DNA of 44,292 nucleotides from Candidatus Fraserbacteria bacterium. Lineage in GTDB: Bacteria > Bipolaricaulota > Bipolaricaulia > RBG-16-55-9. The notes beneath the pieces are model-generated. The model had not been told where the DNA came from. It searched no databases and saw only the letters and a program-made list of their open reading frames with translations. The translations under genes and the position numbers were made by a program. This document shows positions 12,800 through 35,874 of this stretch, piece by piece (the stretch's first letter is position 1; each line of letters opens with the position of its first letter). The stretch covers positions 1 through 44,292 of the forward strand of contig JBBIPG010000015.1 in NCBI GenBank assembly GCA_037442925.1, read 5' to 3'.

Positions 12800-14179
12800 G
12801 TGTGGACGGCCGAGCAGATTGCTCAGATCGTAAGAGGGCAACTCCATCAGCCAGATCCTGCATGCAGGATCACAGGATATTCCGTCGATAGCCGGTGCCT
12901 GAAGCCAGGGGAGTTTTTTGTCGCGCTGCCGGGTGTACAGACAGACGGCCACCTCTTCTTGGAGGAAGTTTTCCAGAAGGGAGCAAGTGGAGCGCTGGTC
13001 CGTCACATCCCCGCCACCCTGAAAAGATTCCACAATTGCGTTCAAGTCACTGACACCTTGCAGGCCCTTCAACAACTGGCAATTGTCTATCGCCAGCAGT
13101 TGGAGATTCCCCTTGTCGGGATCACGGGGAGTTCCGGCAAGACCACCACGAAAGAGCTGGCTTATGCTCTCGTGAGTCAGAAATACAGAGCCTACCGGTC
13201 TCCGGGTAACTACAACACGGAGATTGGGCTGCCGGTGGCGCTTCTCAATATGCCTGCTCAGACAGAAGTGGGGATCTTTGAGCTTGCGCTTCAGCGTGCC
13301 GGCGAGCTCCAGACGCTGACTGAGATCGCCCGGCCCACCATGGGCGTTCTCACGTCCATTGGGGACGCCCATTTGGGGTTCTTCAGGGATCGTGAAGAGC
13401 TGGCTCGGGCGAAGTGGGAACTGGTCGAAAGGCTTCCTCCTCAAGGCGTAGCGGTGCTGAACTTCGATGTTCCCTATCTTGTGGAGTGGGCGAGGCGACT
13501 TCCCACGCGCGTTGTGGGCTTTGGCCTGGAGAACCCAAAGGCCCATGTGCGGGCTGAGCGCATCCGCGACGACCGGCTGGATGGACTTGAGTTTGAGGTT
13601 TGCACGCCCATCGGGTCGTTTACTGTGAGAATGCAACTCTTAGGGCAAGCGAATGTCTATAACGTACTGGCGGCTGTAGCTGTAGCATGGGAACTTCGCA
13701 TGGAAGCCGAGCAGATTCAGAAGGCTCTTGCCCAGTTCAAGCCCATCCCTCATCGTATGGAACTCGTGCGATCAGAGCGCTTGGGGCTCATTCTCGATGA
13801 TTCGTATAACGCGAACCCAACTTCTGTGAAAGAAGCCTTACGCACCCTGGCGCGATTACAAGTACCCCATCGAAAGATCTTCGTCTTTGGGGACATGCTC
13901 GAGTTGGGGGATTCCTCAGTGGAACTGCATCGTGAGCTGGCAGATGTGATTGCTGAGCTTGGAATCGAGCGGGTCTTCACGGTGGGAGAGCTGGCGAGAG
14001 AGACGGCACTAGCTTTGCGAAAACGAGAAAATTGGGCTGCGAACAGAGTGATTTCCACAAGCAGCTTGGAGGAACTCAAAGAGGCCCTCCTGTGTGAGCT
14101 GGCTGATGATCAGAATCTGACTCTGGTCAAGGGCTCGCGAGGGATGGGGCTGGATCGGCTCGTGAAGGCGCTCGTATAA
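12800..14179 (+). CDS. murF: UDP-MurNAc-tripeptide--D-Ala-D-Ala ligase
   Basis: DSR, DGH, GITGSSGKTTTKE, GNYNTEIGLP, DDSYNANP, GDMLELG, VKGSRGM. Confidence 0.96.
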   Translation: MWTAEQIAQIVRGQLHQPDPACRITGYSVDSRCLKPGEFFVALPGVQTDGHLFLEEVFQKGASGALVRHIPATLKRFHNCVQVTDTLQALQQLAIVYRQQLEIPLVGITGSSGKTTTKELAYALVSQKYRAYRSPGNYNTEIGLPVALLNMPAQTEVGIFELALQRAGELQTLTEIARPTMGVLTSIGDAHLGFFRDREELARAKWELVERLPPQGVAVLNFDVPYLVEWARRLPTRVVGFGLENPKAHVRAERIRDDRLDGLEFEVCTPIGSFTVRMQLLGQANVYNVLAAVAVAWELRMEAEQIQKALAQFKPIPHRMELVRSERLGLILDDSYNANPTSVKEALRTLARLQVPHRKIFVFGDMLELGDSSVELHRELADVIAELGIERVFTVGELARETALALRKRENWAANRVISTSSLEELKEALLCELADDQNLTLVKGSRGMGLDRLVKALV

Positions 14180-33567: not shown

Positions 33568-34887
33568 CTAAGATGCTGTTGCCAGTTGATCACTTGGTGG
33601 AGTGATGGCTGTCTTAAGGAGGTACGAGCGCACAACTCTCTTGAAATGCTCACCGCGCTCCTCGTAGTTTTTGAACTCATCGAAGCTGGGGGAGGCAGGG
33701 GAGAAGAGACAGATGCTCGGGCCGGATCGAATGACTTCCTCAATCGCACCCTGCAAGTCCTGAACGAGCTGGAAACGTCGATAGCCCAGTGTTTGCAGCA
33801 TGTGCGCCCAGCGCCGGCGCGTCTGTCCCATGAGCAGAACGGCATGGATTTCTCGATTCTGAATCATCTGTGCCAGTTCTCTTATGTCGTCACCCGCATC
33901 GTACCCACCCAATATGAGAACCAAGGGCTCCTCGAACGTCGAGAGTGCCGCGATGGTCGCGGCCGGACTGGTAGCCTTCGAATCGTTATAGAATCGAACC
34001 CCACTCACCTCCGCCACGAACTCCAGACGATGTGGCAATTGCAGGGCTCTCGTAAGATCCAGGCGTTCGTGATGGATCTGGGGATCGATCAAGCGTGCTG
34101 CTCGCAGTGCCGCCGCCAAGTTCTCCCGCTGATGAGCCGGAAGCGGTACGCCAAGAGGTTCCAGCTCTTCCGCGCAGAACTTCCATACGCGAGAGCGAAT
34201 CGTAGAAGGAAGTGCGATGTCACGGTGCACGACAGCATGATCCTCTTCGGTCTGCCGAGCGAAGAGTCGGCACTTCATGGCAAAATAGCGTTCCAGGCTT
34301 CCATGACGATCCAGGTGATGTGGCGCGAAGCGCGTAAAAACACCGATGTGAGGTCGAAAGGTGTCCACATGCTCCAGTTGATAGCTGCTCACTTCAAGGA
34401 CCACCACCGTTTCGCTGTCGATCTCATGTAGACGAGCAATCAGAGGCTGTCCGATGTTCCCGGCGACGACCAGCGGGTAATCGTGAGCCTTGAGCAACTC
34501 CGCCGTGAGATGAGTCGTGGTGGTCTTCCCCACGGTACCCGTGACCGCGATGATCCGTTTGCTCCGGCAGAAACGATATGCCAACTCCAGCTCGCCCAGG
34601 ATGGGAATGCGTCTCACACGAGCCTCTCTGAGCACAGGGGCCGCATAGGGTATGCCCGGTGAAGGGATGACGAGCTCCGCTTGAAGCGCGCTTTGCGTGT
34701 GACCGCCTTCTTCATAACGGACTCCAAGCTGAGAGAGCTCCCGTTTGAGGGCAAGAGATATCTGGGCCTGATCACTGAGGAAGACCTGAGCATGATGCTG
34801 GACGAGAAAGCGAGCAGTAGCCTGGCCGGTGCGACCTGCTCCCAGTACAGTGACGTGCTTCCCGGCTAGTGAGAGATCTTTAGGCAT
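33568..34887 (-). CDS. murD: UDP-MurNAc-Ala--D-glutamate ligase
   Basis: VLGAGRTG, SPGIP, AVTGTVGKTTT, GNIG, LEVSSYQL, HLDRH, PHRLE, NDSKAT, SPASPSFDEF. Confidence 0.96.
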   Translation of the reverse strand: MPKDLSLAGKHVTVLGAGRTGQATARFLVQHHAQVFLSDQAQISLALKRELSQLGVRYEEGGHTQSALQAELVIPSPGIPYAAPVLREARVRRIPILGELELAYRFCRSKRIIAVTGTVGKTTTTHLTAELLKAHDYPLVVAGNIGQPLIARLHEIDSETVVVLEVSSYQLEHVDTFRPHIGVFTRFAPHHLDRHGSLERYFAMKCRLFARQTEEDHAVVHRDIALPSTIRSRVWKFCAEELEPLGVPLPAHQRENLAAALRAARLIDPQIHHERLDLTRALQLPHRLEFVAEVSGVRFYNDSKATSPAATIAALSTFEEPLVLILGGYDAGDDIRELAQMIQNREIHAVLLMGQTRRRWAHMLQTLGYRRFQLVQDLQGAIEEVIRSGPSICLFSPASPSFDEFKNYEERGEHFKRVVRSYLLKTAITPPSDQLATAS

Positions 34888-34973
34888 TGTATGGGAATGC
34901 TAGGATGGGAGCAGATCTCCTACCAAGGACAGGCGTCTTGTTATGAGGCCGCGTGAAGCACAACAAGGCGCCG

Positions 34974-35011
34974 AAAAAGAAAAGGTCACTGCCATTCGAC
35001 AGTGACCTTTT
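34974..35011 (-). terminator. Rho-independent terminator (possibly bidirectional) after the Lys/Gly micro-ORF
   Basis: On the minus strand: AAAAGGTCACTGTC-GAAT-GGCAGTGACC followed by the T-rich tail TTTTCTTTTT. Confidence 0.85.
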
Positions 35012-35038
35012 CCACTCTTCTGAGACACTCAGAGGGAA

Positions 35039-35083
35039 TTACTTGCCTTTCTTGCCGCCCTTCTTCTTGCCACCCTTCTTCAC
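35039..35083 (-). CDS. Putative Lys/Gly micro-peptide MKKGGKKKGGKKGK (14 aa; 28 aa if started at ATG 35125)
   Basis: GTG start with a GGGGTG RBS-like motif about 5 nt upstream. Synonymous codon variation within the repeat. Perfect TATAAT upstream and a terminator downstream. Confidence 0.6.
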   Translation of the reverse strand: MKKGGKKKGGKKGK

Positions 35084-35143
35084 CTGCTTCACCCCCTTTT
35101 CAGGAAACAAAGGGAACTGTTTCATCTTTCCCTCAAAATAATT

Positions 35144-35170
35144 ATTATAGTGTATTGGCCCTGTTGTGAA
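35144..35170 (-). promoter_or_regulatory. Putative promoter for the micro-ORF
   Basis: TATAAT at 35144-35149 (minus) in an AT-rich patch. TTCACA lies 15 nt upstream, a non-optimal spacing. Confidence 0.5.
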
Positions 35171-35277
35171 TAGTGTGCGCATTACATTCTCAGTCGCATC
35201 GCCTTTCGTGGGGAAGCTCTTTGAATCTGTCCCGGACGCTCCCGTAATATCGCTGGCAAGAGGAAAGGAGATTGCGC

Positions 35278-35874
35278 ATGTTCCCATCACGAAACGTGGC
35301 CATTCTCATCTTCGACGAAGTGGAGGTCCTCGATTTCACTGGCCCCTTTGAAGTGTTTTCTGTCACGGGCAGACGTCAGGCCTTGGAACCGTTTCACGTC
35401 TATACCGTGGCGCAACAGCCTCAGCCAGTCATGGCTCGCAATCACTTGAGTGTGAATCCACGATACACGATTCTCGATTGCCCAAAGCCTGATATTGTGC
35501 TCATCCCCGGAGGCTACGGCACGCGCCGGGAGATGAACAACCAGACCCTCATCGATTGGATCAAAGCTCGCGCGCGCGAGGCGGAACTCACTCTTTCGGT
35601 CTGCACCGGTGCTCTTCTCTTGGCCAAAGCAGGCTTGCTCGACGGCCTGGGAGCGACAACTCATTTCGGGGCCATCGATCTTTTGCAGGAGCTGGCTCCC
35701 AACACGACCATTCATCGTGGCCAGCGATTCGTGGACAACGGGAAGATCATCGTATCAGCGGGTGTGTCGGCCGGGATCGATATGTCGCTCTATGTCGTAG
35801 CAAAGCTGATGGGCAAAGCCCAAGCTCTCGAGACGGCTCACTACATGGAATACGATTGGACGCCTGAGCCATGA
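35278..35874 (+). CDS. DJ-1/PfpI family protein (InhA/ThiJ-like)
   Basis: FDEVEVLDFTGPFEVF, IPGG, SVCTGALLLA, ATTH, SAGVSAGID. Confidence 0.92.
   Translation: MFPSRNVAILIFDEVEVLDFTGPFEVFSVTGRRQALEPFHVYTVAQQPQPVMARNHLSVNPRYTILDCPKPDIVLIPGGYGTRREMNNQTLIDWIKARAREAELTLSVCTGALLLAKAGLLDGLGATTHFGAIDLLQELAPNTTIHRGQRFVDNGKIIVSAGVSAGIDMSLYVVAKLMGKAQALETAHYMEYDWTPEP

Follow-up and report, generated by a model that had tools for sequence, protein, structure and literature searches.

Small basic proteins are known from the bacterial ribosome, namely bS22, bTHX and bL37, the first two of which are similar in size and charge to the micro-peptide that is the subject of this study. Like Hc2 (PF07382, NF038052) and the tails of AlgP/PhaF and MDP1, this micro-peptide is made up of short repeats rich in Lys that are separated by small neutral residues. 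According to the available text of the respective sources, KPAA-repeat peptides of AlgP bind DNA (PMC9239181) and the Lys-rich tail of MDP1 from mycobacteria is able to compact it (PMC5974015). A similar gene layout is represented by rreB/rreR of Alphaproteobacteria which, as far as the available text of PMC5711450 goes, is a monocistronic unit of ~165 nt whose 14 codons start with GTG behind an extended Shine-Dalgarno (SD) sequence and encode an unstructured peptide. With its long SD and GTG start, the 14-aa rreB gene is described there as weakly translated, and the word "lysine" is missing from the main text of that paper.

The micro-gene described here is located on contig JBBIPG010000015.1 of a Candidatus Fraserbacteria bacterium, the analyzed stretch of which comprises 44,292 nt and is called the window in the following. 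The elements that an earlier note on this DNA had claimed could all be retrieved on the minus strand at its coordinates (Table 1). Translation from the GTG at 35083 to the TAA at 35041-35039 yields MKKGGKKKGGKKGK, a peptide with a charge of +8.

Table 1. Positions of the micro-gene, its signals and its neighbours in the window.
Feature	Positions	Strand	Remark
DJ-1/PfpI-like gene, divergent	35272..35874	plus	match below cut-off
Predicted Crp/Fnr-type activator site, TGTRA-N6-half site, centre -41.5 from predicted start	35186..35171	minus	
-10 hexamer TATAAT; predicted +1 near 35137	35149..35144	minus	
5' hairpin, 7 bp, arms 35134-35128 / 35116-35110	35134..35110	minus	in MFE of predicted transcript
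In-frame upstream ATG (28-aa form)	35125	minus	weak SD
Extended SD, 11 bp including one G-U, 5 nt 5' of GTG	35099..35089	minus	
Micro-ORF, 14 aa, 8 Lys + 5 Gly, zero acidic residues	35083..35039	minus	
Small 6-bp post-stop hairpin, weak, not conserved	35033..35019	minus	
Predicted intrinsic terminator, 15-bp stem, 4-nt loop, T5	35012..34974 (stem to 34979; T-run 34978-34974)	minus	
Predicted murD promoter: GAC-N4-GTC palindrome (34937), TTGGTA (34926), 18 nt, TAGCAT (34902)	34937..34897	minus	
murD, first in murD-ftsW-murG-murC-murB-(unassigned)-ftsA-ftsZ; neighbour outside the unit	34887..33568	minus	NCBIfam

Within the six frames of the 2.07-Mb genome, the micro-ORF is the only place where at least eight consecutive Lys or Gly residues include at least four Lys, and the longest Lys/Gly run in nine simulated genomes (Markov order 1, 2 and 5) was seven, with none of eight or more. 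The duplex between the SD and the 16S tail of the same genome was computed at -18.1 kcal/mol, a strength that is equalled in 39 of 1842 long ORFs, and the corresponding duplexes of five homologous genes range from -17.6 to -20.3 kcal/mol. The mRNA, with both ends predicted, would be monocistronic and extend over ~164 nt from 35137 to 34974. Folding of the 181-nt strand of the micro-gene gave a z-score of -2.46, and a Rfam scan of the window returned six matches, all at chance level (E 3.9 – 8). The mixture of synonymous codons had been taken as a sign of selection on the peptide; however, mixed codons in one ORF alone provide no such evidence.

A comparison of 30 murD loci, namely the own one and those of 29 relatives (three with less than 250 nt upstream), revealed a Lys-rich micro-ORF upstream of murD in three of them: in the window, in a genome of the same genus (G001) and in one of another genus (G006). 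The search in relatives that the earlier note had suggested thus found frame, start and stop preserved in both. The G001 ortholog has 13 codons, with one codon lost and Gly-Gly replaced by Ser-Ala, and the G006 ortholog has 23 codons, 13 of them for Lys, arranged in SPKK/AAKK/SSKK repeats; the length differences among the three orthologs preserve the reading frame. Both relatives retain GGGGGTGA, the 5-nt spacer and the GTG start, and their terminators follow 24 – 26 nt past the stop with compensatory T-A to C-G and A-T to G-C exchanges. The lysine content, the frame and the expression signals are hence conserved, in contrast to Gly, the 28-aa form and the two small hairpins. "Lys/Gly-only" is therefore an accurate label for this copy and otherwise a lineage quirk, with Gly giving way to Ser, Ala or Pro elsewhere; likewise, the in-frame ATG of the proposed 28-aa form is present, but in G001 the upstream ATG hits a stop after three codons. 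The DJ-1/PfpI-like gene is decayed in G001 and absent from the G006 locus.

Two metagenome contigs, X2 and X3, can be aligned with the window over 669 and 982 bases, respectively, of which 63 and 73 differ (~7 – 9%); none of the differences listed falls within the 100 nt between 35035 and 35134. Since silent sites are also invariant, this hints at a constraint at the RNA level. Under uniform rates, the invariance has a P of ~1e-5 (X2) and ~2e-4 (X3), two values that are not independent as the contigs share many substitutions. The further metagenome runs X4 and X5 yielded fragments only, X6 yielded no sequence of the locus, and X1 was not counted as it is perhaps the same DNA. None of the seven runs listed for this DNA is an RNA run, which speaks neither for nor against expression.

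A paralog of 27 residues, rich in Lys, Arg and Thr (L312; C74:3764-3844, minus strand), is flanked by unrelated genes and possesses the same upstream box, the same SD and a homologous terminator; a counterpart is present in G001 and a 39-aa version in G005. None of the six same-family genes encodes an acidic residue. Homologous units were detected in four of nine same-family genomes, and no micro-gene was found in the remaining five, for which reason the gene looks dispensable, nor in G009, G011, G017 and G019; G014 has a tentative micro-gene only. A 27-codon Lys/Arg/Ser-rich stretch on C39 near 15111 (minus strand) is the C-terminal tail of the upstream gene and not a free micro-gene. A match of the G005 gene to sX6 (E 3.6e-4, below gathering) was dropped, as the known sX6 is an 80-aa signal-peptide protein in the available text of PMC3300014.

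With regard to expression, the perfect TATAAT that had been claimed is indeed present, but a consensus promoter scan favoured another register (TTCACA-18-AATAAT, three bases off) and found one promoter where 0.9 are expected by chance; the last T of that rival AATAAT is missing in X3. Because the consensus scan is only at chance level, the promoter call rests on comparison, with T-12, A-11 and T-7 of the -10 hexamer kept in G001 and G006 at identical spacing. Further upstream, TGTRA-N6-[TC][AC][AC]TA lies 21 – 22 nt 5' of a -10-like hexamer in all six same-family micro-genes, in differing neighbourhoods, and has 14 matches genome-wide. Relative to the predicted +1, its centre at -41.5 corresponds to the class II position of Crp/Fnr proteins, and the HTH_Crp_2 profile has 12 matches above cut-off in the own genome. 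As the pattern was derived from those same loci, the Crp-like box is a lead rather than a test. A similar box is also found 5' of a ~27-aa ORF on C36 (12559-12720, plus strand), which has a Cys/Gly-rich tail and its own hairpin, directly follows a Crp/Fnr gene and looks like a modified-peptide precursor.

The terminator that had been noticed after the ORF held up well. Its 15-bp hairpin has a folding energy of -23.5 kcal/mol with pair probabilities of 0.77 – 1.0, compensatory and G-U-compatible changes occur in G001, G006 and both paralogs, and the changes in X3 concern mostly the loop, plus a G-U to A-U exchange; a consensus terminator scan of the window did not have it among its calls. The two smaller hairpins exist in the window but neither is conserved: the 5' hairpin, which would mask the weak SD of the ATG at 35125, is unchanged in X2 and X3, lacks its 3' arm in G001 through a deletion and is absent in G006, and is hence lineage-specific. 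The micro-gene is real at the sequence level.

On sequence grounds, it is also a member of a broad cross-phylum class of Lys-rich micro-genes. In family f5, a Lys/Ala/Thr gene of 14 – 25 aa is present in 16 of 18 genomes, one of which was recognised by leader DNA alone, and the two genomes without it are 61% and 69% complete. In the f5 units, a canonical sigma-70 promoter is followed by a leader of ~250 nt, a PLD-like gene is oriented divergently, and a convergent gene lies downstream in all 13 fully read loci. Their leader (L044, L046-L050, L055 and others) is conserved and structured and includes a tract that resembles an anti-SD. About 45 nt downstream of the ORF, the terminator is preceded by another conserved hairpin whose loop is rich in C; a Rfam scan of four f5 loci gave no match. 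Family f3 has units in three of four genomes, with up to four genes per genome, some of them Gly-rich, and families f8 and f9 have tandem arrays of two to three complete units. A GGGAC-N4-GTCCC palindrome that resembles the one upstream of murD is found 5' of the f9 and some f8 micro-gene promoters, and a divergent gene, labelled ArsR-like HTH by sequence appearance, adjoins f3/f8 micro-genes (L407, L408, L410, L412, L414, L421, L302, L307). In f8 (L302-L306, L413, L415-L418, L420, L422, L423), an acidic zinc ribbon of ~50 aa that resembles LysW (E 3.3e-7 against PF21344 for L305) comes closely after the micro-ORF. It lacks the C-terminal motif that is characteristic of LysW; an HU gene comes next in L302. 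It is possible that this zinc ribbon is an acidic partner of the basic peptide.

A GTDB scan for an SD, a start and Lys-Lys-x-x-Lys-Lys in 5 of 64 parts yielded 120 loci, from which ~1,600 stretches are estimated for the whole set with this one strict pattern. The hits were in frame with the SD-linked start in 115 of 120 cases, with four of the ten allowed offsets being in frame. Closed ORFs of up to 25 aa account for 76 and those of up to 50 aa for 91 of the 120, and 17 run off the locus. The 91 closed ORFs (not deduplicated) consist of 58% Lys and 24% Ala, contain an acidic residue in one case and end in Lys/Arg in 83, figures that are partly circular because the survey selected on Lys-Lys-x-x-Lys-Lys; the 3' fold has z < -2 in 65 of them. 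Carriers are, by title, Acidobacteriota, Planctomycetota, Nitrospira relatives, Rokubacteria, Eisenbacteria, Chloroflexota, Actinomycetota, Patescibacteria, Bacteroides and archaea, including the cultured Bacteroides acidifaciens (L232), and a locus titled Ca. Bipolaricaulota (L233) carries an f5-type gene. Gly-Gly spacers as in the window recur in L211, L228, L232, L260, L286 and L287.

Throughout the class, Lys pairs and triplets are kept, whereas the small neutral residues between them (Gly, Ala, Ser, Thr or Pro) vary, as does the length (10 – 50 aa); most homologs start with ATG, the copy number is 1 – 4 per genome, the distribution is patchy and the position mobile. A metagenome scan with the SD-start pattern of the window gave 36 loci with one true homolog (L159), which has the same sequence as G001 and is thus non-independent, and a first strict pattern at the phylum level matched 4 of 151 genomes, two of the matches being starts of unrelated ORFs. 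Among the neighbours, 150 of 154 flank frames, on short flanks, were compared with Pfam and 14 matched, the anticodon-binding domain alone recurring (twice). None of six class peptides was present among 15 billion catalogued proteins, a result that reflects in part length limits as all six are short, and no description of the class was found in the open-licence literature searched, although supplementary tables of small proteins might contain such peptides.

How the micro-gene acts can be imagined in different ways. A silent or vestigial ORF would agree with a promoter that is not significant by consensus alone, but two genera and the paralog agree in frame, SD, box spacing and terminator pairing, and chance Lys/Gly runs are far shorter, so we regard it as highly improbable. 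The earlier note had also considered a Lys/Gly-sensing leader peptide that attenuates murD-ftsZ. Leader-peptide attenuators resemble the micro-gene in that a short repeated-codon ORF and a terminator lie 5' of an operon, leader peptides with Lys codons are known in Thermus, and the micro-gene is on the same strand as murD, with its terminator 87 nt before it and the linkage retained in three genomes. However, an antiterminator was not found by equilibrium folding, in agreement with the note's own observation that none invades the terminator core: the best upstream duplexes with the terminator arms reach -10.6 and -11.2 kcal/mol as compared to -23.5 kcal/mol for the terminator itself. In addition, murD has a separate, conserved predicted promoter, which sits between the micro-gene terminator and murD, so that a dependence of the operon on the leader promoter with conserved linkage is not seen; the micro-ORF is missing at 27 of 30 murD loci, and the paralog and most homologs are located elsewhere, the f5 homologs facing a convergent gene in the 13 fully read loci. 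Neither Gly nor the other spacer residues are conserved and, while Lys is kept, the operon is not one of Lys biosynthesis. Attenuation of murD by the micro-gene is thus unlikely, and a leader peptide sensing Lys (or Lys/Gly) appears to us as extremely improbable. The atypical MurE pocket that had been offered as a link does show DNPK where DNPR is usual in the substrate-pocket motif of MurE, but murE lies ~29 kb away in another operon. MurE (5727-3706, minus strand) has a ~190-aa N-terminal extension before its ligase domains, and murE and murF (12800-14179) are both apart from the murD-ftsZ cluster. As a caution, a Lys-rich ORF with a terminator upstream of an operon need not be an attenuator. 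Directly upstream of the predicted -35 of murD, the GAC-N4-GTC palindrome (34928-34937, minus strand) is found in 13 of 30 murD upstream regions (L004-L011, L013-L015, L017, L019), among them all nine of the same family and ten without the micro-gene, for a motif that was picked after viewing the loci and with ~3 of 30 hand-estimated for chance; it may possibly be an operator of the dcw operon.

It is also imaginable that the mRNA is the main product, i.e., an rreB-like small mRNA in which long SD and GTG hold the 30S subunit or adjust the stability of the mRNA, while the peptide is of secondary importance. The layout is alike, as GTG, 14 codons, extended SD and a (here predicted) monocistronic length of ~165 nt correspond to what the available text of PMC5711450 reports, the SD ranks with the strongest 39 of 1842 long ORFs, and no change is listed over 100 nt in X2 and X3. 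The 16S complementarity, however, comprises 11 bp rather than the at least 16 nt that reach the start codon in this system (16 – 17, with 17 nt for rreB), most homologs start with ATG, and Rfam gave no meaningful match in the window. What phyla have in common is the composition of the peptide, and neither the RNA sequence nor the leaders; this reading is unlikely. We likewise consider it improbable that the product is a small basic ribosome-associated peptide that binds rRNA in the manner of bS22/bTHX. The strong SD would fit, but bS22, bTHX and bL37 are constant in length and sequence and have family profiles, whereas here length (10 – 50 aa), sequence and copy number (1 – 4) vary freely with a patchy distribution, and searches of Pfam, NCBIfam and PDB revealed no similarity to ribosomal proteins. 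A specific acidic protein partner, or a role as precursor of a modified peptide, is brought to mind by the many f8 genomes that pair the micro-ORF with the acidic zinc ribbon close behind and by the Cys/Gly motifs at the end of some variants; with PF21344 having no match in the own genome and maturation or export genes being absent at the micro-gene locus, it is very unlikely.

From our point of view, the micro-gene probably encodes a polycation that is abundant and unstructured and that attaches to nucleic acid in the manner of a detached histone-H1 tail, and it is probably under the control of a Crp/Fnr-type activator centred at -41.5. The stand-alone polycationic mini-protein that the earlier note had preferred is hence also the reading towards which conservation, the paralog and the large cross-phylum class point, with frame, SD, start, stop and terminator all kept in G001 and G006. 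An activator of the Crp/Fnr family would drive the promoter from -41.5, the predicted ~164-nt mRNA would be translated from its strong SD at high output into a disordered peptide of 14 residues and +8 charge, and transcription would end at the terminator before murD, which would start from its own promoter. Acting in trans, the peptide would bind the DNA or RNA backbone non-specifically by charge neutralisation and may, together with HU, contribute to the compaction or protection of the nucleoid.

With 8 Lys among 14 residues and no Asp or Glu, the micro-peptide has the Lys-rich low-complexity composition of Hc2, and variable repeat numbers and the lack of acidic residues are common to H1-like proteins and micro-peptides, both of which would likely bind nucleic acid electrostatically. 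In contrast, it is free-standing with 14 aa and Gly spacers, compared to 165 – 237 aa for Hc2 in the available text of PMC2848022, and without a folded domain and ~ten times shorter than the 154-aa repeat of AlgP. The 28-aa form matched no Pfam or NCBIfam family and the longest relative (39 aa) matched Hc2 best but sub-threshold, with 8.2 bits versus 40 (Pfam) and 11.6 versus 135 (NCBIfam). It thus likely works like an H1-type tail, yet stands outside Hc2 and every profiled family searched. In bacterial histones (DUF1931/Bd0055-like; PDB 9QT0, 8FVX), the Lys/Ala motif is fused to a histone fold: the N-terminal tail of the histone-fold protein L182 (E 2.5e-16 to 9QT0, 1.6e-4 to 8FVX) is the same motif that in micro-peptides makes up the whole product. 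L182 and L198, both from Phycisphaerae, are histone-fold proteins of 74 – 75 aa with Lys/Ala N-terminal tails.

The composition alone fits DNA, rRNA, tRNA or an acidic protein as partner alike. DNA or RNA is favoured because of the analogy to AlgP and MDP1, the histone-tail fusion and the lack of PPK1 and PPK2 profile matches in the own, 94%-complete genome, the latter also rendering polyphosphate a less likely partner. Binding by 14 residues is expected to be far weaker than that by H1-like proteins of 150 – 240 aa. HU was found in 34 of the 35 genomes that represent the order, and the peptide is therefore no HU replacement; the own genome has five HU/IHF-family matches above cut-off. A substitution for polyamines was considered and rejected: within the order the idea held, as the four genomes with a canonical spermidine synthase are all without a detected micro-gene and no such synthase was found in the own genome, but it failed at the phylum level, where genus g19 combines the synthase (14 of 14 genomes) with micro-genes (12 of 14), and f10 has the synthase in none of 19 genomes, yet no convincing micro-gene.

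Beyond this family, we tentatively put forward the more doubtful notion of an unannotated pan-prokaryotic class of encoded polycations of 10 – 25 residues, i.e., free histone-H1 tails at roughly one thousand loci or more in many bacterial phyla and in archaea, whose dose would be set by tandem duplication and whose switch, in this family, would be a Crp/Fnr-type activator; they may form an overlooked minimal layer of chromatin or counter-ions that is invisible to gene callers and tryptic proteomics. Such peptides would be missed twice, being below the length of gene callers and destroyed by trypsin. If expressed, they would rank with the smallest proteins that associate with the nucleoid or coat RNA, and the class makes it possible to test a long-standing question, namely the function of an H1-like tail without any folded domain.
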